A stretch of DNA of 64,000 bases from assembly GCA_965219095.1 (NCBI GenBank), contig OZ244719.1, positions 160,001-224,000 on the forward strand, given 5' to 3'. Shown piece after piece: positions 3,397 through 64,000 of this stretch. The notes beneath the pieces are model-generated. The model saw only the letters and a program-made list of their open reading frames with translations. It made no database searches and was not told the DNA's origin. Origin of the DNA: Bdellovibrionales bacterium (GTDB lineage Bacteria > Bdellovibrionota > Bdellovibrionia > Bdellovibrionales > UBA1609). Every line of letters begins with the position of its first letter. Position 1 is the stretch's first letter. A program made the translations under genes and the position numbers.

Positions 3397-4200
3397 AACA
3401 GCAAAGAAAGCTTCATACTTATCTAGGTCGTGTGATAAGAGATGTTACAAGAAAAGGAGGTTCTAAGCTCTTGGAAGAGAATTCACCTTTAAAAAGATGT
3501 TTATCTTTATGTGTAAGAATTTATAACCAAAAAAGAGGAGATAAGAACAAGGTGTATAGTGTTCATGCTCCTGAGGTTTATTGCATAGGGAAGGGCAAAG
3601 CCCATAAAAAATATGAATTTGGCAATAAGGTGAGTGTGACAACTTCATCAAAAAACTGCTTGGTTTTAGGGGTAAAGTCATTTGAAAAAAATGTATCAGA
3701 TGTTCACAGTTTAAAGCCAGCCTTATCTCAAGTTGAATCCTTAACAAAGGTTAAGGCAAAAAATTTGTATGTAGATAAAGGTTATCGTGGCAAAGAGCAT
3801 CATCCTTCGGGAGTTAATGTTCATATTGGGGGAATGAGTAAAACATTAAGTCCCTACAAAAGAAAACTTCACAGAAGAAGAAGTTCAGTTGAGGCAATCA
3901 TTGGTCATATGAAAATAGATTCTCGTAGGGGAAGGAACTTTCTATTAGGATCACAAGGGGATGCTATTAATTGTCTTTTATCAGGAGCTTCTCAAAATTT
4001 TAGAAAGTTAATGCTAGAAGTTGCGTCTTTTTTCGTTTTTTTCACTGAAATGGCTTAAAAGGCCTGTACGCCTTCTTGAAAACTACTGTTTTGTTTAAGT
4101 TATGAAAAAATATTTAACCCTCTATAGTAGAAAGTAACAGGGATAAAGATCATAATGGCATAAAAATCCTAGGCTTTTGTCAATTTTTCACGTTCGACTA
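3397..4200 (+). pseudogene. IS5-family transposase 3' fragment (ORF 3432-4058) and right end
   Basis: DKNKVYSVHAPEVYCIGKGKAHKKYEFGNKVS, YVDKGYRG, RSSVEAIIGHMK; 5' part removed at the IS3 end. Confidence 0.85.
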
Positions 4201-4477
4201 TATAGTGATCATACATTTTATTTTCCTCCTTTGTTGGTTTGTTTATAAATAAAGTCTTGAAATCCTATTTTACATCTTTTTTTTGCTTTTTCCTTTTTTT
4301 CGAGTAAGCCTTCACAAAAATACAGGCTTAATCGAAAAAAAGGGAAAACACCCTTTGAGGCCTTAAAAACCAGGTCAGCTAAAGGGTTTAGAATTTGTCT
4401 CGAAAATCACCTCCTTCTGCAAGTACTTTAGGGTCACTACCATGGCTTAAACCAGTGACCTGTCTTTTTGATTTACC
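4198..4477 (-). mobile_element. IS110-A left end plus first codons of the transposase
   Basis: Near-identical reverse complement of 62877-63160. Confidence 0.85.
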
Positions 4478-4501
4478 GTCGAATTAATTTCTGTAATTGG
4501 T
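4478..4501 (+). mobile_element. IS630-2 right TIR stub (IS110-A insertion site)
   Basis: GTCGAATTAATTTCTGTAATTGGTA matches 58607-58631. Confidence 0.8.
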
Positions 4502-10291: not shown

Positions 10292-11192
10292 ATCCCCTCC
10301 TATAGTGTATAATATATACACTACTACAGATAGTAGTCAATGGCAAACCCCTTTCTTTTTCAAGAAATCTTGTCTTTTCTCAGAGGCAAAAAGACCGTTT
10401 TAAGATGTTTTAAATGTTAGGATGTTTGTAGTGGATATTTTTTGCCCCGAATTTAGGTCATTTACCTTCGTAAGATTGTCAGTGGGTATGAAGATGTGGT
10501 TAAAAGAGGAGTTCGTGTTAAAAACCAAAGATCAGCTCTGTTTCGAGCTTCCCATCTTGATGCTAAGAAGCAGACTCAATTAAAACGGGCAGAAGAGATA
10601 TATTTGTTCTAGAAGGCTTAGATAAAGCTATCAGTTCTTATGGGGAGGAGAAAGCACGTTATGAAGCAGAGTTTAAGAGGCTAAGTAAAAAACACAAAGA
10701 TATTAGAAATCTTAGTAGCATTCCAGGAATTGGTTCTATCAAGGCTATCAAGATTGTAGCCAGGGTTGTAGTGCCTCACCAATTTAAACGTAATTCCTGG
10801 TGGAGTGGACTGCGGACTTGTAAAGCTACATAAAATGAGCAGTGGAAGGTCTTATGGAACTAAGAAGTCTAGGTTTTGCCCACAAATGAAAAGTGTTTTT
10901 AAGATAGCTGCACTCTCAGTTATAGGAAATAACAATGAATTTAATGATTTTTATGAAGAATTGATCAAAAAAAATTTACCACCACACACTGCTAGAAATG
11001 CTACCAACTAGAAGAATTGCAGCTTTAACTTTAGGTGTTTTCAAGTCTGGGAAAAAATATAAACCTTATGGAGAACGTAAAAATGTAAATAATAATAAAA
11101 CAACCTTATAAAATCATCTGTTTAAAGTTTCTTGCATAGTAAGTAACAATACAAATAATGACTTTATGAGGTGAGGATAGATAGCTTAATTA

Positions 11193-12885
11193 CCTAAATT
11201 CGTGACCAAAAATGTACACTACAAAGCTATAATTTCCCATTTTCCATAAAAATCTCAGTTTTCATAGGGGAATTTTCAATTTTTAGATAAAATCACAAAA
11301 AATAACTTGCCTTGCATTTTCCTTTGTAGTGTAATATATTACACTATATGAGGGAGAAATATGAGCTTTATCAGAAGAATAAAAAGAGGAAAGGTAACAT
11401 ATCTTGCAGAAGTAGAGAACAAAAGGGTTGATGGAAAAGTTATCCAAAAGCATATTCGGTACATCGGGAAGGAAGAGAATGGTGAAACTGTAATTTCAAT
11501 GAGCTCATCTGATCTTGAAATAGAAAAGGTCAAGGTTTATGGTCCTTTGCTTGTTTTAGATAAAATAGCTAGGGAAATAGATTTGCAAAAATCTCTTGGC
11601 CAATACTCCAATGAAATATTAAGCATGGTCTATGCTCACTGTTTAGATTACAAAAGCCTTAGAAAAATGCCAAAATGGTATGAGAGAACAGATTTAAACA
11701 CTTTGCTAAATTTAGAGGATCTAACCGAAAGTCGTTTGCTTTCTGCTCTAGATTCTTTAGAGAGTGATCCAGAAAATTTACAGAAGAAAATATTTCAAGG
11801 TGTTCAGAAAAGGTACAATCTTGAGCTAAAAGGGTTGGTGTACGATGTTACCAATACATACCTTTATGGTAGCAAATGTCAGCTTGGAAAATTAGGAAAG
11901 AGTAAGGATGGGAAACGTGGAAATCCTTTGATTCAAATTGGTTTGGTGACAACTCAAAAAGAAGGAATACCAGTGTTTCATAAAACTTTTAGTGGAAACA
12001 TACACGATAGCAGGACTCTACTAAGTTTATCCGATGGATTTGCAAACTATGGACTAAGTGGAGGAATGTTTGTTTACGACAGAGGCATTTTCTCAGAGAG
12101 AAACCTCAATGAAATCAATGAATTGGGCTGGAATACGCTTTGTGGGATTGCTCTCAGAAAAAAAGAGAAGGATGTGATTAGAAAAATGATAAGGCTAGAC
12201 TCTATTGTTGATGTATCCCATCGCATCAGGTTATCAAGTGGTACCTTGTATGCTCAGAGCATTAATCACAATGTTGGAAAAATCAAAGGACGTTTAGTTG
12301 TTTGTTACAATCAAAGGAGAGCTTTAGATATAAGAGAATCTCGTTTGGACGAAATTGCAAACGCACAAATTCTTTTGTCTAAAAATATAAAACCAGGTTT
12401 GGAAAAATACCTTACTCCAACAGGAAGATTAAGGAGAGATCGGTTGAATTTAGAATCTGAGTTTGATGGTTACTCTTGTATATTTTCTACAAAAAAGATC
12501 TCTGCAAAAGATATTGTTAATTTGTACTATAAGAAAGAGGTAATCGAAAAATTTTTTAGGACCTTAAAGGGAATAACAAATTTGAGACCAATTCGTCATT
12601 GGCTTTACAACAGAGTTCAATCACATGTCTTTATATGCTATTTATCTTGTCTGATACTTTCAATTCTAAAAATGAAGCTTGAAAAGATGCAGATGTCTCC
12701 AGAGGAAGCTCTTGAAGAACTCGGTAGCATGTATAATGTCTATCTTTATGACCGAAAAAATAAAACTAGACTTATCAAAACAGTAGCTTTGAATAAAGTT
12801 CAAGAAAAAATACTAAGATCTATTGGAAAAAGTCTTGTCAAAAAAACGTCCGTCTGTAGTGTACATTTTTGAGCACGAACTTAGG
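11193..12885 (+). mobile_element. IS1634-family element B, apparently intact
   Basis: TIR CCTAAATTCGTG / CACGAACTTAGG; 7-bp TSD TTAATTA; empty site near 63830. Confidence 0.92.
11361..12872 (+). CDS. IS1634-family transposase, 503 aa
   Basis: YDVTNTY, VYDRGI, IEKFFRTLK, LRPIRHWLYNRVQSHVFICYL. Confidence 0.9.
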   Translation: MSFIRRIKRGKVTYLAEVENKRVDGKVIQKHIRYIGKEENGETVISMSSSDLEIEKVKVYGPLLVLDKIAREIDLQKSLGQYSNEILSMVYAHCLDYKSLRKMPKWYERTDLNTLLNLEDLTESRLLSALDSLESDPENLQKKIFQGVQKRYNLELKGLVYDVTNTYLYGSKCQLGKLGKSKDGKRGNPLIQIGLVTTQKEGIPVFHKTFSGNIHDSRTLLSLSDGFANYGLSGGMFVYDRGIFSERNLNEINELGWNTLCGIALRKKEKDVIRKMIRLDSIVDVSHRIRLSSGTLYAQSINHNVGKIKGRLVVCYNQRRALDIRESRLDEIANAQILLSKNIKPGLEKYLTPTGRLRRDRLNLESEFDGYSCIFSTKKISAKDIVNLYYKKEVIEKFFRTLKGITNLRPIRHWLYNRVQSHVFICYLSCLILSILKMKLEKMQMSPEEALEELGSMYNVYLYDRKNKTRLIKTVALNKVQEKILRSIGKSLVKKTSVCSVHF

Positions 12886-13195
12886 TTAATTAGAGTGATA
12901 TTTATAAAAAATTCATTTCGACGAATAGCACATCCTCTATTCCTGAAATTTACTATAATCTAAGGTTTTAAATCTTCGGAATAAATTCATGATTTAAAAC
13001 TAAAAAAGGTTCAGATAGACGCATAATAGGAATATGTTTGTTTTACAATGTGTAAAGGAAGAGTCATTAAAAAATGGAAAGGAAATGCAGGAAGTTTTCT
13101 CTTAGATGATTAGAATATTCGTGACCGTATGCAAAAAAAATTTTTTATATTTTTTGTAAATGGAGAAGTGTTTTTTCTTGACATACTTTTTGATA

Positions 13196-13282
13196 GACAC
13201 TCTAAAAATTTAACAGAGTTTGATTAAAAAGCAAGGAGGCTATGCGTTAAAAGAATGTCGAATTAATTTTTGGAAATGGTAT
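13196..13282 (-). mobile_element. IS630-2 left end up to the start codon (IS110-A insertion site)
   Basis: Reverse complement of 57226-57312 with few changes. Confidence 0.85.
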
Positions 13283-23344: not shown

Positions 23345-23415
23345 CGGTAAATAGAAAGAGCAAGTCACTGGTTTAAGCCATGATGGTGACCTTAAAATAC
23401 TTGTAAAAGGAGGTT
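23345..23415 (+). mobile_element. Diverged IS110-type left-end stub
   Basis: CGGTAAAT...GTCACTGGTTTAAGCCATGATGGTGACC, similar to 62876-62945. Confidence 0.7.
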
Positions 23416-23586
23416 GACTAAAGTTAAAAAGAAAGTGTCAGGTTGTTTCAGAACAGAAAAAGTGGCAAAATATTTTTGTCGTATTACCAGCTATGTTAAA
23501 ACCATGAGAAATAAAGGATATTCTTCTTTAGAGGCAATCACTATAGCTCTTAACAGAAAAACTCACAGTAAAGAGTGAGTAGTTAC
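23415..23586 (+). pseudogene. IS66-B-like 3' end and right TIR
   Basis: TKVKKKVSGCFRT...GYSSLEAI; ends GTGAGTAGTTAC. Confidence 0.85.
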
Positions 23587-33625: not shown

Positions 33626-33998
33626 AGACGTTATATGATCTGACAGTTACACTTTCTGGGTTAATAAAAAACTGTCTGTCAGTTTGTGTTCCGTTCAATC
33701 ATCTTTTGCCTTACAAATGAACATAAGGAAATTAAAGTACATATTTATAATTAAATCAATGAAAAAAACTACTTATATTAAAATTTGGTTACTATACTTT
33801 ATAGCGAAAATACTTGATTTTTGCCCCCTACTACCTCTCAGCTTCTTTTAAGCACTTTTGACGCATGTGCTACTGTCAAACCGGGAAGAAAAATTAGTGA
33901 AAAAGGAGTTAAAACAACTTAAATCATTAAGCCTTTATAAAGGAAGACTTTACAGAATTAAAAGACCTGACACTCTATCTTCTATTTCTAAAAAATTC

Positions 33999-35530
33999 GT
34001 AACTGCTCACCTACATTGTTCAGTTATCCCTAACTTTAGACCTGTTTTAAGATAAAAGTCTTGCTCTTACAGATTTTCTTTTAAATACTTTTTTCAAATG
34101 ACAATAAATAAGACCTCCATCAGAAATGAGATTGAAAATATAAGAAGTGACTTTGATAAGCTTGCAAAGAAAGGTTCTGTGCCTACTGAGATTTCTGTGG
34201 TTTTTGAATCTCTCTTTAAGGTTGTGAACATTCTGATTGTTGTGTTTTTAGAAAAACAGGTTCGAAAAAATTCCAGCAACAGCGGTCTTCCTCCTTCGCA
34301 AGATTTTAGTCGTCAAGGGAATCGTAATAAGAAAGCTAGTGGGAGTCAGAAAAAGGGCTCTAGACTTGATAACAGTAAAGATACAAACAGTGAGGAGACT
34401 GTCTCTCCCTCAGAGTGTTCTCAGTGTGGGATGTTTTTAAAGACAGCAGAGGTAAAAAGCCTTGAGAAGCGTAAAAAGATTGATATTTTTTATGAAATTC
34501 AGACCCATACTGTAACTTCTGAAGTTAAGGATTGTCCCTCATGTGGAGCTAGAAATAAAGGTCAATTCCCTAAAGGTATGAGTGGTCCTCTTCAGTATGG
34601 TATAGGCATTAGAGCTTCCATCATCAATTTCATTATAGTTCAGATGCTGTCTTTTCAACGTGTTGGGGAACATTACATGGGGCTTATAGGTCGAATGATT
34701 TCTCCTGCAGTTATGTTGAGATACATTGCTGAATTAGGAGAGTTTCTTAAAAGTTGGGAAGAGCAGATGAAAGAAAAGATACTTGAATCAGAGGTCATTC
34801 ATGTTGATGAGACCTCTATGAGGGTTAAGGGTAAAAACTACTGGATTCATACTTATAGTTCAGGAGAATTAGTCTTGCAGTTTCTACACCTTTCAGGTGG
34901 AAGGGAAGCCATAAAAGATATTGGTCTCTTGGATAGATATACAGGAGTGCTTGTGCATGATTGTTGGAGTCCTTACTTTTGTTATGATAAGATAACTCAT
35001 GCTTTGTGTGTGGCTCACCTTTTGAGAGAGCTTAAATTTATAGAAGAAAGCAATGGATTCAAATGGGCTACAAATCTCAAAAAACTTCTTAAAGAGACTG
35101 TGGAGTTAGTTCATAAAAAAGAGTCAAGAGTTCTGACTCAAAAAGAGTACGAAACTCTTCAGAGAAGGTATAGGAGTATTCTTACAAAAGGCTTAAAAGA
35201 GCTTCCAGAATTTCCTAAGAAAAATGGCAAGAAAGGACGAATAAAGCATACACAAGCTCAAAACCTTTGGCTGCGATTTAAAAAGTATGAAGCAGAAATA
35301 CTGTGCTTTGCTAAAAGAAAGAACGTAGATCCTACTAATAACAGAGCTGAAAGAGATCTAAGAATGACTAAAGTGAAAAAGAAAGTGTCAGGGTGTTTCA
35401 GAACAGAAGAAATGGCGAAATATTTTTGTCGTATTACCAGCTATGTTAAAACAATGAGAAATAGAGGGTATTCTTCTTTAGAAGCCATCTCTATGGCTTT
35501 AAATAAAAACTTACGAGAGTGAGCAGTTAC
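33999..35530 (+). mobile_element. IS66-B, complete
   Basis: TIR GTAACTGCTCAC; 8-bp TSD AAAAATTC. Confidence 0.95.
34098..35522 (+). CDS. IS66-family transposase, 474 aa
   Basis: KNSSNSGLPPSQD, HVDETS, VHDCW, HALCVAHLLREL, TNNRAERDLR. Confidence 0.93.
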   Translation: MTINKTSIRNEIENIRSDFDKLAKKGSVPTEISVVFESLFKVVNILIVVFLEKQVRKNSSNSGLPPSQDFSRQGNRNKKASGSQKKGSRLDNSKDTNSEETVSPSECSQCGMFLKTAEVKSLEKRKKIDIFYEIQTHTVTSEVKDCPSCGARNKGQFPKGMSGPLQYGIGIRASIINFIIVQMLSFQRVGEHYMGLIGRMISPAVMLRYIAELGEFLKSWEEQMKEKILESEVIHVDETSMRVKGKNYWIHTYSSGELVLQFLHLSGGREAIKDIGLLDRYTGVLVHDCWSPYFCYDKITHALCVAHLLRELKFIEESNGFKWATNLKKLLKETVELVHKKESRVLTQKEYETLQRRYRSILTKGLKELPEFPKKNGKKGRIKHTQAQNLWLRFKKYEAEILCFAKRKNVDPTNNRAERDLRMTKVKKKVSGCFRTEEMAKYFCRITSYVKTMRNRGYSSLEAISMALNKNLRE

Positions 35531-35655
35531 AAAAATTCAAAGTATTCTATAGAAAAAATAAAGAAAGCTAACCCTGAGTTCAAAGAGCGTTTCTTGAAAA
35601 CTTAAACGGAAGCACTATATGACCCTTATTCCTAAAAAGTAAATTGCTTGCAGTT

Positions 35656-46602: not shown

Positions 46603-48134
46603 GTAACTGCTCACTCTCGTAAGTTTTTATTTAAAGCCATAGAGATGGCTTCTAAAGAAGAATACCCTCTATTTCTCATTGTTTTAACATAGCTGGTAAT
46701 ACGACAAAAATATTTCGCCATTTCTTCTGTTCTGAAACACCCTGACACTTTCTTTTTCACTTTAGTCATTCTTAGATCTCTTTCAGCTCTGTTATTAGTA
46801 GGATCTACGTTCTTTCTTTTAGCAAAGCACAGTATTTCTGCTTCATACTTTTTAAATCGCAGCCAAAGGTTTTGAGCTTGTGTATGCTTTATTCGTCCTT
46901 TCTTGCCATTTTTCTTAGGAAATTCTGGAAGCTCTTTTAAGCCTTTTGTAAGAATACTCCTATACCTTCTCTGAAGAGTTTCGTACTCTTTTTGAGTCAG
47001 AACTCTTGACTCTTTTTTATGAACTAACTCCACAGTCTCTTTAAGAAGTTTTTTGAGATTTGTAGCCCATTTGAATCCATTGCTTTCTTCTATAAATTTA
47101 AGCTCTCTCAAAAGGTGAGCCACACACAAAGCATGAGTTATCTTATCATAACAAAAGTAAGGACTCCAACAATCATGCACAAGCACTCCTGTATATCTAT
47201 CCAAGAGACCAATATCTTTTATGGCTTCCCTTCCACCTGAAAGGTGTAGAAACTGCAAGACTAATTCTCCTGAACTATAAGTATGAATCCAGTAGTTTTT
47301 ACCCTTAACCCTCATAGAGGTCTCATCAACATGAATGACCTCTGATTCAAGTATCTTTTCTTTCATCTGCTCTTCCCAACTTTTAAGAAACTCTCCTAAT
47401 TCAGCAATGTATCTCAACATAACTGCAGGAGAAATCATTCGACCTATAAGCCCCATGTAATGTTCCCCAACACGTTGAAAAGACAGCATCTGAACTATAA
47501 TGAAATTGATGATGGAAGCTCTAATGCCTATACCATACTGAAGAGGACCACTCATACCTTTAGGAAATTGACCTTTATTTCTAGCTCCACATGAGGGACA
47601 ATCCTTAACTTCAGAAGTTACAGTATGGGTCTGAATTTCATAAAAAATATCAATCTTTTTACGCTTCTCAAGGCTTTTTACCTCTGCTGTCTTTAAACAC
47701 ATCCCACACTGAGAACACTCTGAGGGAGAGACAGTCTCCTCACTGTTTGTATCTTTACTGTTATCAAGTCTAGAGCCCTTTTTCTGACTCCCACTAGCTT
47801 TCTTATTACGATTCCCTTGACGACTAAAATCTTGCGAAGGAGGAAGACCGCTGTTGCTGGAATTTTTTCGAACCTGTTTTTCTAAAAGCACAACAATCAG
47901 AATGTTCACAACCTTAAAGAGAGATTCAAAAACCACAGAAATCTCAGTAGGCACAGAACCTTTCTTTGCAAACTTATCAAAGTCACTTCTTATATTTTCA
48001 ATCTCATTTCTGATGGAGGTCTTATTTATTGTCATTTGAAAAGAGTATTTAAAAGAAAATCTGTAAGAGCAAGACTTTTATCTTAAAACAGGTCTAAAGT
48101 TAAGGATAACTGAACAATGTAGGTGAGCAGTTAC
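46603..48134 (-). mobile_element. IS66-B, complete (transposase 46611-48035)
   Basis: 8-bp TSD GAAAAAGA; near-identical to 33999-35530. Confidence 0.95.
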
Positions 48135-56738: not shown

Positions 56739-57225
56739 TAAAAAACTTTGGAAGATAGAAGAATCGTTTCGAATCAACAAACACACTCTTAAAATGGGCT
56801 CCTCCCGGGAATCTGTGGGTGAAAAGTAGTAGAAATCCTCCAAAAAGGCTCATATTAATCAAAGTAAGAGTAAGACATCCTATCTTGTATTTTTGAGTTC
56901 TTTGAGGCCTTTACTGGCCTCTATCACCTCCGGTGATTGAACTCAAAAACATTCTTTTATTTGCTGTATTACATTAAAATTTTAAAAAAGAAGCACCTAC
57001 TTCCCAGATGCCTTAAAATGTTATTCAAAAAAAAAAAAAAAAGGAGGGAAGAGATGCTTTTGAAGACTATACTAAATGATTGTTTAAAATGGAAGTCTTT
57101 TGTATACGGAGACATTTATTTTTCAAAAGATAGAAAGTCAATTAATGTTCCTATTAAGGCTCGTAAAAATGGCCAAGCTTTTTGTAGTGTTTGTAAGAAG
57201 CTCTGTTCAGTGTATGACAGCAGTA

Positions 57226-58631
57226 ATACCATTTCCAAAAATTAATTCGACATTCTTTTAACGCATAGCGTCCTGGCTTTTTGATCAAACTCTGTTAAAT
57301 TTTTAGAGTGTCGAAAAAAGATTTAGTTACACAGATTCAAGGGTATAATTTTCTAGCTACTTACAAAGTAGAAAGAAGTGCCAACATCAAGATAAAACTC
57401 CAAGCTTTGCAGCATATGCAAGAAGGAAAATCGATTCAAGAAACAGCAAGTATAGTTTTCTATCACAGTCACAGTATCAAATCCTGGTTACAGTCTTTTG
57501 TAGACTTTGATTACGAGGGGTTGATAGATCGAGAAGGCAGAGGGCGCAAGCCTCGTTTACCAGTGACAGAAGAAGAGAACTTCAAAATCAAGTTAGATGA
57601 AATTCAAGACACAAGAGAAGGAGGAAGCATAGGAGCAAAGGGAATACAGGAACTTTTAGCAAATGAATTTGACTGTTGCTATTCTCTTTCTGGGGTTTAT
57701 GCTCTTTTAGACCGTCTTAATATTGTATGGATCAGTGGTCGTTCTCTTCATCCTAAAACTTCACAAGAAGCTATGGAACAGTTTAAGGAACATTTTCCAG
57801 AAGAGGTGGAGAAAATAAAGGAAAAGATTCAGACTCATAAAATAGAGATTTGGTGGCAGGATGAATGCAGAATAGGCCAGCAAGGTTCTTTAAGCAGGAT
57901 TTGGGCAAGAAAAGGCACACGACCTAGAGTTGTGAGACAAAGACAATTTTTATCCACTTATATTTTTGGAGCAGTTTGTCCGGATAAAGATAAAGGCTGT
58001 GCTTGGGTTTTACCGGAATGTAATTCAGGGATGATGCAAATTCACTTAGATGAGATATCTAAAAATATTCAAGAAAACTATCATGGAATTGTTTTAATGG
58101 ACAGAGCCAGTTGGCATACCACAGAGACTTTGATAGTTCCTAAGAATTTATCCCTGATGCCTTTACCTCCTTATAGTCCAGAATTAAATCCCATGGAACA
58201 AGTCTGGCAACAATTACGAAGGATCAAATTATCGAATGCATGTTTTAAAAACTATGACCATATACTGAATACTTGTTGTGAGGCCTGGAATACTTTTTGC
58301 GATCAGGAGGGCAGGATTAAAAAATTATGCACTCGATCTTGGGCAAAACAACAAGATGAATCAAGCTTGTAAATTAATTTGAACCTATAAATTAAATTGC
58401 GTAACTGATTTTTTTCATTTTACATCTTAACCTCACTTTTTTACACTTATTTTAACCCATCAATCGATTCACACAACAATAGATATACATAAAATAAACA
58501 TATCTTATGAAAACTCAACCTCCCTTCAAAAAAAACTTTTTTAAAGCCTCCTAATTGAAACTTTTCCTTAAGTCAATTTTAAAATTTTAAATTTGAACAT
58601 GAAAATGTCGAATTAATTTCTGTAATTGGTA
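57226..58631 (+). mobile_element. IS630-2, complete
   Basis: TIR ATACCATTTCCAAAAATTAATTCGACATT / AATGTCGAATTAATTTCTGTAATTGGTA; TA TSD; removal restores the ISL3 frame. Confidence 0.93.
57308..58372 (+). CDS. IS630-family transposase, 354 aa
   Basis: WQDECRIG, MDRASWH, LPPYSPELNPMEQVW. Confidence 0.93.
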   Translation: MSKKDLVTQIQGYNFLATYKVERSANIKIKLQALQHMQEGKSIQETASIVFYHSHSIKSWLQSFVDFDYEGLIDREGRGRKPRLPVTEEENFKIKLDEIQDTREGGSIGAKGIQELLANEFDCCYSLSGVYALLDRLNIVWISGRSLHPKTSQEAMEQFKEHFPEEVEKIKEKIQTHKIEIWWQDECRIGQQGSLSRIWARKGTRPRVVRQRQFLSTYIFGAVCPDKDKGCAWVLPECNSGMMQIHLDEISKNIQENYHGIVLMDRASWHTTETLIVPKNLSLMPLPPYSPELNPMEQVWQQLRRIKLSNACFKNYDHILNTCCEAWNTFCDQEGRIKKLCTRSWAKQQDESSL

Positions 58632-60201
58632 TAAATCATCACGGGACTTTGAATCCCTTCCTATTTTAAGTTACAGGGTGTTTTTTGTTTATTTTGTAAG
58701 AAGAGTTAATTGTCCTTGCTGTGGGGTAAAAGTTGAGTATTTACCTTGGGCCGATGGTAAGAAGAGTTTAACGATCTTTTACATGAAGTACTTAGCAGAC
58801 TGGTGTCGTCACCTGTCTTGGAAAGAGGTTTCTTGTAAGTTTCATGTCAGTTGGAATCAGGTCTATGCTTCGGTAGAATGGGTCGTAGAATATGGTTTAA
58901 AACAAAGGGTTTTAAAGGGAATACAAGCTATAGGTGTAGATGAAATACAATGGAAAAAGAACCATCAGTATCTCACCTTAGTCTATGAAATAAGCAAAGA
59001 AAGTGTTCGTTTGCTATGGATAGGAGAAAAAAAACAGAAAAGAGTTTTAGAAAATTCTTTGATTTACTAGGAGAGAAGTCAAAAGAGATACGGTTTGTGT
59101 GCTCTGACATGTGGAAGCCTTATTTAAAAGTCATAAAGGAGAGGGCAAGTCAAGCTTTGAATATATTAGATCGGTTTCATATCGTAGCAAGACTCAATAA
59201 GGCTTTAGACGAAGTGAGAGCTTCAAAACACAAAAAAATGAAAGAAGATGGGTATGAACCCCTTTTAAGAAAAGCTAGATGGCCCTTGTTAAAAAATGCA
59301 GAAAATTTAAAATCTTATGAAAAAGTAAAATTAAGGCATTTAATACAGTACAATTTAAAAAGTATCCGCTGTTATCTTTTAAAAGAAGACTTCCGACAGT
59401 TATGGACCTATGTTTCACCAACTTGGGCTGGTAAATTTATAGACAGTTGGACGAGACGAGTCATGCTTTCAAAAATTGAACCTATGAAAAGAGAAGCAAA
59501 AACCATACGAAGACATAAGCTACTTATTCTTAATTACTTCAAGGCTAAAAAAACCTTCTCCTCAGGGATTGTAGAGGGTTTAAACAACAAAGTAAAACTC
59601 ACTATGAGAAAATCTTACGGCTTTAGAACCTCTAAAGCTATAAAAATCGCCTTATATCATAACCTTGGAAAACTGCCAGAACCTCCGGGAACCCACAGAT
59701 TCTTTTGAGGAGGCTTAAAATGAGACCTATCTTTCACCAGATTTCAAGAAGAATAAGAGCCCACATTTTGATCTGCTATCTTTCTTATATTGTCTTAAGG
59801 TATACAGAGCTTTCTTTGAAATCAAAAGGCTTAAATTATGGAGTAGAAACCTTAATTAGAATATTATGTGAGGTGGAAAAGTGGATTCTAAAGAATTCAA
59901 AAACAAAACAAAAATATATGATCTTTAAAGAACTATCGAAAGAGGCTAAGAAAATTTACCAAGCTTTTGATATTCAAAGACAGGAGCTTGCATATCGACT
60001 AGAAAACACCTAAGCTCTTGACTATAGCGAAAAGTGTTGCGTGTCCTGAAAATTAAAAATCTTGTAATATTAGGTGGTTAGAAGTTGCGCACTGCTCCGA
60101 ACCGATAAAGTCAGGATAAAGTCAGGAAAAAATATAAAATGCATTGATTCACTTTTTGATAAACATTTTAAACTCATCAATAATCTTTTTTGTAATTGGT
60201 G

Positions 60202-62048: not shown

Positions 62049-62717
62049 TCACCAAAATAATGTAAAATGACCTTTTAAAACTTTATTGATCTCTTTCTTT
62101 TTAAGAACGAGGTTGTCTCTTGACGAAGGGGCTCTTACCATTTTTAATGAATAAAGTACCCACCTTTTAGGCCAAAAACCATAAAAATTCTTCATGGTCA
62201 AAGTGCTTTGTTCCCCTAACAAAACAGGAACCCTTAGGTCGGCTTTCTTCAACTCCTTTTTATTAGGTAGCAAAACCTCTTTGATCATCTCAGAGTTTCT
62301 ATTGTACTGGCAAGGAATCACAATATGCATTTCCACAGGTGCTCCTGAAACGGAAAGTCCATCTCCATGAAACTTAAGTTTTATGAAGCGATAAAAATCG
62401 CAGGCAAACTCTTTTTTCCCTAAAGCGTTAATTCTTATAAAATGCCCTAAAGCAATGGATTGTTGATCTCCTTTTTGAATCGTTTTAGCTCCCAGCAACA
62501 ATCTTCTGATACTTGCACTCTTAAAATGAACACCCTTAAATTGAGAGATATCTAATTTAGATTCAATGGCCGCAAGCTCACGATGATCTCCTCCCTCTTC
62601 CGAAAAAGGATAAAAAAAGACCTTTCCATCCCAAGAGTTTAAAGTAAAAAATCCCCCTAAAGCCATACCAAGAAGCAAAACACTAAGTGCTAAAAACCCT
62701 CTTTTCATTCCTTTCAT
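62049..62717 (-). CDS. Hypothetical exported/membrane-anchored protein
   Basis: 222-aa ORF with N-terminal hydrophobic helix. Confidence 0.65.
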   Translation of the reverse strand: MKGMKRGFLALSVLLLGMALGGFFTLNSWDGKVFFYPFSEEGGDHRELAAIESKLDISQFKGVHFKSASIRRLLLGAKTIQKGDQQSIALGHFIRINALGKKEFACDFYRFIKLKFHGDGLSVSGAPVEMHIVIPCQYNRNSEMIKEVLLPNKKELKKADLRVPVLLGEQSTLTMKNFYGFWPKRWVLYSLKMVRAPSSRDNLVLKKKEINKVLKGHFTLFW

Positions 62718-62850
62718 CCCTCTTTTTATTCTATAGGATTTCCACCAAAAAAAAAGCCCTACTCGCTAAAAGACTTGTTTAGGGACAGCTTTGTTTCAAG
62801 AGAGAATCTGAACAAAACCCCTAGGAGTACAAAAAAGAAAATAAGGGATA

Positions 62851-62876
62851 ATACCAATTACAGAAATTAATTCGAC
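62851..62876 (-). mobile_element. IS630-2 right TIR stub (IS110-A insertion site)
   Basis: ATACCAATTACAGAAATTAATTCGAC. Confidence 0.8.
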
Positions 62877-63142
62877 GGTAAATCAAAAAGACAGGTCACT
62901 GGTTTAAGCCATGATAGTGACCCTAAAGTACTTGCAGAAGGAGGTGAGCTTTTCGAGACAAATTCTAAACCCTTTAGCTGGCCTGGTTTTTAAGGCCTCA
63001 AAGGGTGTGTTTTCCCTTTTTTTTCGATTAAGCCTGTATTTTTGTGAAGGCTTACTCGAAAAAAAGGAAAAAGCAAAAAAAAGATGTAAAATAGGATTTC
63101 AAGACTTTATTTATAAATAAACCAACAAAGGAGGAAAATAAA

Positions 63143-63754
63143 ATGTATGATCACTATATAGCCGTAGATTGGGCACAAAGTAACATGGCCATTTCAAGGA
63201 TGACAGGCAAATCAAAAGATATTAAGACTATGGACACGATTTCAGATCTTGGGAATCTTCGTGCCTATTTAAAAACTCTGAAAGGTAAGAAGATATTGAC
63301 TATATGAAGCAGAGTTTAAGAGGCTAAGTAAAAAACACAAAGATATTAGCAATCTTAGTAGCATTCCAGGAATTGGTTCTATCAAGGCTATCAAGATTGT
63401 AGCCAGGGTTGTAGTGCCTCACCGATTTAAACGTAATTCCTGGTGGAGTGGACTGCGGACTTGTAAAGCTACATAAAATGAGTAGTGGAAGGTCTTATGG
63501 AACTAAGAAGTCTAGGTTTTGCCCACAAATGAAAAGTGTTTTTAAGATAGCTGCACTCTCAGTTATAGGAAATAACAATGAATTTAATGATTTTTATGAA
63601 GAATTGATCAAAAAAAATTTACCACCACACACTGCTAGAAATGCTACCAACTAGAAGAATTGCAGCTTTAACTTTAGGTGTTTTCAAGTCTGGGAAAAAA
63701 TATAAACCTTATGGAGAACGTAAAAATGTAAATAATAATAAAACAACCTTATAA
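63143..63754 (+). pseudogene. IS110-A transposase with internal deletion and frameshifts
   Basis: MYDHYIAVDWAQSNMAI (DEDD N-terminus) fused at about 63304 to LSSIPGIGSIKA...MSSGRSYG. Confidence 0.85.
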
Positions 63755-63770
63755 AATCATCTGTTTAAAG

Positions 63771-64000
63771 TTTCTTGCATAGTAAGTAACAATACAAATA
63801 ATGACTTTATGAGGTGAGGATAGATAGCTTAAGTAGAGTGATATTTATAAAAAATTCATTTCGACGAATAGCACATCCTCTATTCCTGAAATTTACTATA
63901 ATCTAAGGTTTTAAATCTTTGGAATTCATGATTTAAAACTAAAAAAGGTTCAGATAGACGCATAATAGGAATATGTTTTTTTTACAATGTGTAAAGGAAG
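63771..64000 (+). ncRNA. Putative IS110-A bridge RNA, uninterrupted copy (3' end beyond the window)
   Basis: Target loop 63816-63880 (TAGAGTG, TTTCGAC); donor loop 63881-63973 (ATTTAC, GATAGACG). Confidence 0.75.

Follow-up and report, generated by a model that had tools for sequence, protein, structure and literature searches.

Why should the ends of one insertion sequence (IS) lie so often at the same two positions inside another? The question is raised by IS110-A and IS630-2, two elements of a Bdellovibrionales bacterium whose genome (3.11 Mb, 34% G+C, two contigs, C1 and C2) is full of nested insertion sequences. We analysed a stretch of 64,000 nucleotides (nt) of this genome (G000:C1:160001-224000; hereafter the window, to which all positions without a contig label refer) together with the remaining sequence. 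A preliminary description of the window had proposed that an RNA-guided IS110 element parasitises IS630-2, and the junctions and guide-target matches reported here support that core reading: IS110-A was probably an IS1111-type element, aimed by its RNA at the terminal repeat and the start codon of IS630-2, which subsequently decayed and left hybrid remnants behind. The evidence consists of the junctions themselves, the correspondence between guide and target, a conserved RNA, and the decay of the copies.

IS110-A junctions within IS630-2

The window carries an intact IS630-2 of the GTG-start allele (57229..58629, + strand), flanked by TA at 57227-57228 and 58630-58631 and encoding a transposase of 354 amino acids (aa; 57308-58372, +, GTG start at 57308) with the Pfam domains DDE_3, HTH_33 and HTH_32. 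Genome-wide there are 52 uninterrupted full-length copies, plus many fragments, and IS630-2 DNA makes up 4.0% of the genome. Within the intact copy, the start-codon target (57304..57316, -; TTTCGAC^ACTCTA, the caret marking the crossover) is empty, and its crossover falls between 57309 and 57310, inside the GTG start. As the preliminary description had stated, the perfect 13-mer TAGAGTGTCGAAA at 57304-57316 covers this start codon (57308-57310); it occurs exactly once in the window, and allowing up to two mismatches yields 3 matches against 1.86 expected, so that loose matches to the 13-mer carry no information. The right-repeat target (58599..58614, -; AATTCGAC^ATTTTCATG) has its crossover 23 nt from the terminus. 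The near match TTCGACATT that had been pointed out in both terminal repeats is indeed present in both, at 57246..57254 (+) and reversed at 58599-58614, but the left repeat is never used: no junction with a left-repeat flank was found among 45 left-end and 42 right-end matches. Across the genome the target 12- and 13-mers are confined to IS630-2 DNA (TTCGACACTCTA, 25/25; TTCGACATTTTTA, 47/47), as are 278 of the 332 occurrences of TTCGACAT.

All three IS110-A junctions previously described from the window lie in IS630-2 sequence. A truncated copy (4195..4477, -; reference positions 1-285) meets, at its left end, the outer 23 nt of an IS630-2 right inverted repeat, present as a fragment at 4478-4500 (...ctttttgatttacc|gtcgaattaatttctgtaattggtata). 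A second copy, with an internal deletion (62877..64000, +; reference positions 425-818 deleted), is a simple insertion in the right repeat, whose outer 23 nt (62854..62876, +) it severs from the IS630-2 body (...ccaattacagaaattaattcgac|ggtaaatc); it extends past the window to C1:224137 and is flanked by AATTCGAC on the left and ATTTTTATG on the right. Both left-end junctions read ...AATTCGAC|GGTAAATC, and their outer flanks differ; the two may nevertheless go back to one event, as the preliminary description had allowed. The third copy (10458..13198, +; reference positions 617-1349 and 1341-1654) is interrupted by an IS4-like element and has its right end in the start-codon site (...ctttttgatagac|actctaaaaatttaacagag..., i.e. 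...GATAGAC|ACTCTAAAA), beside an insertion remnant comprising the first 81 nt of IS630-2, from left repeat to start codon (13199..13279, -). This right end had been placed at 13195; its location at the IS630-2 start codon stands, and the measured position is 13198, the difference arising because GAC is common to element and target and leaves the cut ambiguous by 3 nt. We also observed that 62877-64000, with its outer flank, is 100% identical to C2:2393405-2394665 (reversed, 2.4 kb from the end of C2), which reflects either a segmental duplication or assembly redundancy.

Genome-wide, most mapped IS110-A ends likewise lie in IS630-2 and not outside it. Among 38 chains with a left-end junction, 19 (plus one mutated) fall in the right repeat, 3 in a variant repeat of an IS630 relative, 4 at the start site and 11 elsewhere; the 34 right-end chains divide into 7 at the right repeat, 0 at the variant repeat, 14 at the start site and 13 elsewhere. 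IS630-type sequence accounts for 27/38 left ends and 21/34 right ends, at two exact positions (23 nt inside the right inverted repeat and inside the GTG start codon) and always in one orientation. Relative to the 4.0% genome share of IS630-2 this corresponds to P ~1e-29 (left) and ~1e-21 (right) under an assumption of independent junctions, which these junctions do not satisfy. Seen from the target, an IS110-A left end follows 23 of 126 IS630-2 right ends, with 22 distinct outer flanks; among the others, 50 are empty with a perfect ATTTTTA (TTTTTA allele) and 40 are empty with ATTTTCA (TTTTCA allele). The guide-matching allele ATTTTTATG is present in 7/7 right-end flanks at the repeat site, versus 50:40 among the empty ends (P = 0.016). 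The 120 IS630-2 left ends comprise 57 with an ATG allele (AGAGTCATGTCGAAA), 25 with an empty GTG, 17 that are occupied (plus two with a mutated end), and other forms.

A guide RNA with versions for different sites

Downstream of its transposase, IS110-A carries a 165-nt module with two loops (63811..63975, + strand) resembling a bridge RNA or seekRNA. The preliminary description had located the guide RNA in the left end; it lies instead in the right end, as in the IS1111 type, and the left-end leader holds a variable patch but no loop pair matching target and donor. The target loop of the window copy (+ strand) comprises a 5' guide, GTAGAGTG (63833-63840), and a 3' guide, ATTTCGAC (63858-63865), and the donor loop AAATTTAC ... 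AGATAGAC corresponds to the two ends of the element itself, GGTAAAT on the left and GATAGAC on the right. The guide is situated ~300 nt before the IS110-A right end, in a region found in 20 copies whose intact form reads GCTTAA, 8 nt, ATATTTATAAAAAATTC, 8 nt, GAATAGC.

Three versions of the 165-nt module are identical except in the first 8-mer, which is TTAGAGTG, GTAGAGTG or TAAAAATG; the probability that three substitutions would all fall within 8/165 positions by chance is 7.6e-5. Contigs covering the region from four public runs of one study, a source silent on movement, expression and activity, also contain guide-position variants, at 63833-63834. Reverse complementation of the 8-mer TTAGAGTG gives C-ACTCTAA, which forms the right half of the start-codon site, and that of TAAAAATG gives C-ATTTTTA, which does so in the repeat site. 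At both sites the second 8-mer, ATTTCGAC, agrees with the left half-site plus core at 7/8 positions; in the variant repeat AATTTCGAC the agreement is 8/8. Each guide version fits one site at 8/8. With respect to order, TTAGAGTG (complementary to the top strand CACTCTAA) stands 5' of ATTTCGAC (identical to the top strand), and both include the core C. The start-codon target shows perfect complementarity or identity to the pair TTAGAGTG / (A)TTTCGAC and is found empty in 25 copies genome-wide, all in IS630-2. The copy whose right end lies at 13198 carries this pair, with TTAGAGTG at 12890-12897 and ATTTCGAC at 12915-12922, and the right-repeat target of the window IS630-2 is the TTTTCA allele, with one mismatch to the TAAAAATG guide. 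The earlier suggestion that mismatches could be absorbed by G-T wobbles also fits, as UUAGAGUG would be predicted to pair with CATTTTTA if two G-T wobbles and one mismatch are allowed.

Related loci, drawn from metagenomes through a protein-based scan (80 of 279 examined), extend these observations. RNAalifold applied to five sequences gave two domains with 7 compensatory pairs, and a covariance model (R1) identified the module in 83/100 related loci (E < 1e-4). Its orientation is always that of the coding strand, and where its position was checked it follows the transposase match at a distance of some tens of nt. In the resulting alignment 92.7% of cells are paired, versus 73% in shuffles and 40-57% in slid-partner controls, and compensatory changes occur in 37/37 pairs (observed values reached by 0/500 shuffles); the scaffold is conserved and the two guide segments are hypervariable. 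A metagenome pattern scan for the conserved 5' stem found nothing. When the 3' guide was compared with the 8-nt left flank in 47 relatives, the mean match was 5.43/8, against 2.98 +/- 0.17 for shuffled pairings (maximum 3.55 in 1,000), and all relatives keep the C before the left end. The rule by which the IS630-2 sites are read thus holds across the family. Left flanks only were used here, because the right end of one relative (L009) could not be placed with confidence.

Anatomy and decay of IS110-A

Full-length IS110-A measures 1,654 bp (C2:602980-601327), begins GGTAAATCAAAAAGACAGG and finishes CTTTTTGATAGAC. Its ends (left GGTAA-ATCAAAAAG, right CTTTTTGAT-AGAC) contain a 9-bp subterminal inverted repeat, a leader of ~264 nt precedes the transposase, and ~390 nt of non-coding sequence follow the reading frame. 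From 120 BLAST segments we assembled 89 chained fragments or copies, only two of which run uninterrupted from end to end. The transposase is readable only in pieces, broken by four frameshifts, and nearly every copy has the same frame-breaking sequence at each. At the first of these the sequence is common to 16/17 full-window matches; the lone exception is one base shorter, which would restore the frame of intact relatives (TTTSQW). None of the 1,779 open frames of at least 200 aa in the genome is recombinase-like. The shared frameshifts indicate that the whole IS110-A population descends from an already frameshifted ancestor and that no autonomous copy is left; as an autonomous insertion sequence, IS110-A is extinct.

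The pieces match PF01548 at 31.3 bits (cut-off 29; 17 matches in the genome) and PF02371 at 20.7 bits, just below the cut-off of 21.3. Intact relatives, 334-337 aa long and up to 81% identical over the 107-aa query, derive mostly from Bdellovibrionales and other metagenome genomes, and one of them (P0001, 81% identical over 107 aa) has both domains; a DNA search for relatives in 40 related genomes, none of the same genus, returned none. The GL-P----S(T)G motif appears as GLVKLxKISGG in the relatives' consensus and as GLVKLHKMSSG in IS110-A, with K at the motif's P. According to the published accounts, the subterminal inverted repeats of IS1111 elements measure 7-17 bp and have short extensions at the termini (PMC11208160), and in IS1111-family seekRNAs the top-strand match stands 5' of the bottom-strand match (PMC11187229). 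IS110-A shares the DEDD (RuvC-like) transposase domains, the subterminal repeats, the downstream guide RNA and the top-before-bottom order of matches, and by these sequence features it appears to have belonged, before its decay, to the IS1111 group of the IS110 family. Assignment to the IS110 group proper (IS621-type) was rejected, its guide loops being in the right end and not the left.

The leader itself is variable. A hypervariable patch (reference 68-85; window 62944-62961) reads GAGCTTTTCGAGAC in most copies and occurs in several other variants, among them GTTAACTTGTTGAAAC in the copy sitting at GGTTAAC^, a coincidence with GGTTAAC seen in that one copy. An optional 57-nt hairpin (reference 130-186; window 63005-63069) contains TTTTTTCGA, and both patch and hairpin resemble left half-sites. 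No rule was found by which the patch tracks the left flank; copies at an IS66-like end, described below, have the majority version. We also identified a sister subfamily, 87-94% identical, with the left end GGTAAATAGAAAAAG (C2:522034-522803, C2:2387572 and window 23346-23419). Its flanks end in TC, not AC, and the copy at C2:522372 has the ancestral frame (149 aa) at the first frameshift.

Other targets and start-codon alleles

IS630-2 is not the only element that was entered. An IS66-family element with a 474-aa frame (PF03050) is present in the window at 33626-35600 and 46611-48035 and ends ...GTCTATTACA. Relatives of IS110-A are found 10 nt inside such IS66-like ends, at CATATAAC^GTCTATTACA, where 4 left and 5-6 right junctions stand against 39 empty ends; the IS66-like element represents a second IS family among the targets. 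An exact junction was also found at a low-copy, non-IS630 site, GGTTAAC^GCATTAAG.

The start alleles of IS630-2 differ by 3 nt exactly at the crossover, the GTG allele reading TTTCGAC^ACTCTA and the ATG allele TTTCGAC-ATG-ACTCTA, a difference supported by public-run contigs with TCA inserted behind 57308. GTG left ends comprise 25 empty and 19 occupied, and the ATG allele, the commonest, accounts for 57 with none occupied, a zero that follows partly from how occupied ends are recognised. A third form, TTTCGAC-GAC-ACTCTA, is empty at C2:966265 and occupied at C2:1423839. The alleles with 3 additional nt could represent either an escape allele or a footprint.

A model for guided insertion and loss

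In its active stage, a DEDD recombinase would have been loaded with the ~165-nt RNA encoded downstream of its own gene, and the two would presumably have acted as in ISEc11 or IS621, by analogy with those systems. The donor loop (AAAUUUAC ... AGAUAGAC) would read the element's own ends, GGTAAAT on the left and GATAGAC on the right. The 8-nt 5' guide would pair with the top strand of the right half-site, and the 8-nt 3' guide, AUUUCGAC, with the bottom strand of the left half-site plus the core C. Under this scheme the pair UUAGAGUG/AUUUCGAC would specify TTTCGAC^ACTCTAA, present only at the IS630-2 GTG start codon, and the pair UAAAAAUG/AUUUCGAC would specify (A)TTCGAC^ATTTTTA, 23 nt inside the right inverted repeat. 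Guide pairs of this kind would direct insertion into a target that is multicopy and dispensable, as had been suggested. Disruption of the target would be expected to follow at either site: an insertion at the start site, with the crossover between T 57309 and G 57310, would part the coding sequence from its start codon and from the upstream region and promoter by 1.65 kb, and an insertion at the repeat site would split the terminal repeat 23 nt from its tip. Where one IS630-2 had received two insertions, recombination between these would remove its body and transposase gene and leave hybrids; frameshifted copies, for their part, would have relied on a since-lost master copy for movement in trans.

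How many insertions, and by what route

Several observations weigh against such a model, or limit how much of the pattern it may account for. A copy's own guide often mismatches its own site, as with GTAGAGTG in the window copy at the repeat site and TAAAAATG in the full-length copy at GGTTAAC^GCATTAAG, so that guidance in trans, or later recombination or gene conversion, would be needed; a fourth guide version, TAATAGCG/ATGTTAAC, fits its presumed targets only with a 1-nt offset. The left repeat is unhit, though one base from the TAAAAATG site in 17/52 full-length copies. Both perfect sites are present and empty in 16 full-length IS630-2 copies, about 11 of which have an intact ~357-aa frame and are at least 99% identical to the window copy. 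Among young copies of IS630-2, perfect sites that stand empty number in the dozens; IS630-2 kept expanding after IS110-A died. With respect to the RNA, an Rfam search (62700-64000, E up to 10) gave no family at gathering score, the best hits being miRNA and leader models at a chance level of 17-27 bits, and the compensatory changes counted above come from an alignment fitted to the model, which favours structure. No activity of IS110-A is demonstrable. Furthermore, 15/19 occupied left ends share the variant TTTTTAATCAAAC, rare among empty copies, which fits either common descent or an older, now-extinct IS630-2 subfamily. Finally, the distinct junctions are unbalanced, with 22 left versus 6 right at the repeat site (P = 0.004) and 4 left versus 19 right at the start site (P = 0.003).

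This imbalance implies that most copies are hybrids, with a repeat-site left flank and a start-site right flank, and hence that true insertions are far fewer than junctions. A doubly occupied IS630-2, with both insertions in the same orientation (C2:1421822-1423889), is a plausible hybrid precursor, since the IS630-2 body would be lost if the two inserted copies recombined. Two other origins of the pattern were rejected: a pre-existing empty hybrid shell, whose sequence AATTCGACACTCTAAA has 0 matches in the genome, and a partition of the sites such that each IS630-2 subfamily has one, since the 16 full-length copies noted above carry both. That flanks are reshuffled by recombination is shown by a chimera in which a variant-repeat left flank is combined with a GCATTAAG right flank. 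The sequence next to an IS110-A right end at C2:705041, GATTTACC|GTCGAATTAATT, is an occupied repeat/left-end junction in reverse complement, and two copies are accordingly arranged head to head there.

The preliminary description had named descent of all junctions from one ancestral insertion as a ground for refutation, and simple insertions at both sites speak against such descent. At the start site, C1:307487-310843 has IS630-2 on both sides, of a different variant from the main group; at the repeat site there are three distinct loci, e.g. C2:1421822-1422534, again with IS630-2 on both sides. Copies with a start-site right flank (hybrids, or copies whose left end is missing) include both guide versions, 3 with TAAAAATG and 2 with TTAGAGTG. 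Both leader sublineages, with and without the 57-nt hairpin, are found at the repeat site, and a diverged IS630 relative provides an empty/filled pair with the same outer flank (C2:1243180 empty, C2:1721627 filled). Together these place the minimum at about nine independent insertions, about four of them into IS630-type elements.

One might also suppose that one or very few insertions into IS630-2 were multiplied without IS110 recombination, the enrichment being mostly hitch-hiking. A hybrid keeps both IS630-2 ends (23 nt of right repeat, IS110-A, and 81 nt of left end), and could be mobilised in trans by the IS630-2 transposase, as a miniature element with cargo, while homologous recombination shuffled the flanks. 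The ~15 hybrids implied by the junction imbalance would be expected on this account, as would the predominance of one variant among the occupied left ends, the four frameshifts common to all IS110-A copies (which hence multiplied after inactivation), the persistence of at least 11 IS630-2 copies with an intact ~357-aa frame, the recurrence of an IS4-like insertion at one position in three or more copies, and the reshuffled flanks of the chimera. We nevertheless regard it as unlikely. Frameshifted copies have exact IS110-type junctions at four or more kinds of site (right repeat, start codon, IS66-like end and GGTTAAC^GCATTAAG), which IS630 transposition could not produce; the two guide versions at the start site, the two leader sublineages at the repeat site, the different IS630-2 variant at C1:307487 and the lack of any empty shell all run counter to it, and the complementarity of guide and site is itself left unexplained. 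Passive movement of hybrids by the IS630-2 transposase possibly served as a multiplier of guided insertions.

It is very improbable that sites were chosen by the protein or by DNA structure, e.g. through recognition of TTCGAC, and that the loop matches are incidental. Such a mechanism would account for TTCGAC on the left of both IS630-2 sites, for the C before the left end in all relatives, and for the near invariance of core and left half-site among the copies of this genome. The right half-sites, however, differ (ACTCTAA versus ATTTTTA), and each has an exact counterpart among the guide versions; the left repeat has TTCGAC and is never used, TTCGACAT lies mostly in IS630-2, and the loop tracks the flank in 47 relatives whose flanks are unrelated. 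In the account of PMC11187229, moreover, reprogramming of the seekRNA changes the target of IS1111-type elements.

Building on guided insertion, a more elaborate scenario can be put forward, tentatively and as a whole, in which this genome preserves a fossil arms race between insertion sequences fought through a programmable RNA. A non-autonomous IS1111-type lineage whose transposase was broken but whose guide RNA and ends were intact would have multiplied in trans, and its 8-nt guide would have diversified towards the IS630-2 start codon, the IS630 repeats and the IS66-like end. Double hits would have erased the IS630-2 body, and IS630-2 would have answered with the 3-base (ATG) allele that destroys the start-codon target; the variable patch of the leader may, under the same scenario, be a second programmable segment.

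Relation to known systems

Targeting of one insertion sequence by another is already known in the IS110 family. IS1383 of Pseudomonas putida H reportedly integrates into the inverted repeats of IS1384 (as described by Muller, Lauf and Herrmann in 2001), and a 2003 study is said to have found IS4321 and IS5075 targeting the terminal repeats of the Tn21 family. As far as these reports go, IS1383 resembles IS110-A as an IS110-family element with the terminal inverted repeat of another IS as its specific target; IS110-A differs in its host phylum, its IS630-type target, its second site at a start codon, and guide versions that can be read. IS4321 and IS5075, in what is related of them, likewise have subterminal inverted repeats and enter a transposon's terminal repeat at a fixed position and in one orientation, the target being multicopy and dispensable, whereas the targets of IS110-A are of IS630 and IS66 type and not of the Tn3 family, and IS110-A is extinct and heavily nested.

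Accounts of the RNA-guided mechanism date from 2024 (PMC11208160, PMC11187229). ISEc11, ISKpn4 and ISPa11, as presented by Siddiquee et al. 2024 (PMC11187229), have a non-coding region downstream of the transposase and a subterminal inverted repeat, as does IS110-A; their seekRNA likewise has the top-strand match 5' of the bottom-strand match with overlap at the core, and transposases of this type are given as 330-350 aa, similar to the 334-337 aa of the IS110-A relatives. IS110-A differs from the elements described there in its additional ~264-nt leader, in an RNA that matches no Rfam family, and in being known here from sequence alone; the leader puts it in the class with 'two long non-coding regions', to which the same source assigns 26 of about 350 elements. 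The IS621 bridge RNA (Durrant et al. 2024, PMC11208160) resembles the IS110-A RNA in its target and donor loops, in reading both strands, and in a shared core, but is described from the left end, upstream of the recombinase, whereas the IS110-A guide is in the right end; the IS621 guide order is given as reversed relative to the IS1111 type (PMC11187229). A literature search covering titles and abstract openings, weak evidence on such a point, did not find IS1111-type targeting of IS630.

What is new here is the start-codon target and the natural guide versions for two sites in one victim. The locus provides a natural case of bridge or seekRNA retargeting that can be read directly, with three RNAs, three base differences, and each matching a different site in the same victim. 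It shows the IS-into-IS habit of IS1111 elements in another lineage, whose closest intact relatives are in Bdellovibrionales metagenome genomes, and widens the range of targets from terminal repeats to a start codon. The aftermath is also visible, in hybrids that delete the victim, in the spread of copies with a broken transposase, and in the re-expansion of the victim after the attacker's death. No new mechanism is revealed; for bridge-recombinase engineering, the related loci offer many natural guide-flank pairs (83 loci with the RNA, 47 with a left flank).

Host site of IS630-2 and further nested elements

The intact IS630-2 of the window lies in the 5' part of an ISL3-family transposase gene (56937-57228 and 58632-60013), with a TA duplication. 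The ISL3 identity rests on PF01610 in the frames downstream of IS630-2, and a contig of one public run (X1) has the uninterrupted form of the gene, joining 57223 to 58632 and bearing out the limits of IS630-2 and its TA..TA ends.

Within IS110-A, the IS4-like element at 11191-12881 (503-aa DDE_Tnp_1 frame, 11361-12872) is inserted in the 5' stem of the guide RNA, directly before the guide. The same position is occupied in at least three copies (also C1:308831-310526 and a junction at C2:2072315), and a different IS end is found 1 nt away in two others (C2:1475204, C1:526962), all five having the TTAGAGTG guide; either disrupted copies were inherited or the position is a hot spot for the IS4-like element. 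A further layer of nesting is formed by another insertion sequence, with ends TGGTCATCCATAT..., in the right subterminal repeat of IS110-A, ~11-16 nt from the tip, at C2:1136170, C1:326968, C2:890973, C2:1317854, C1:709973, C2:1616972 and C2:2092943.

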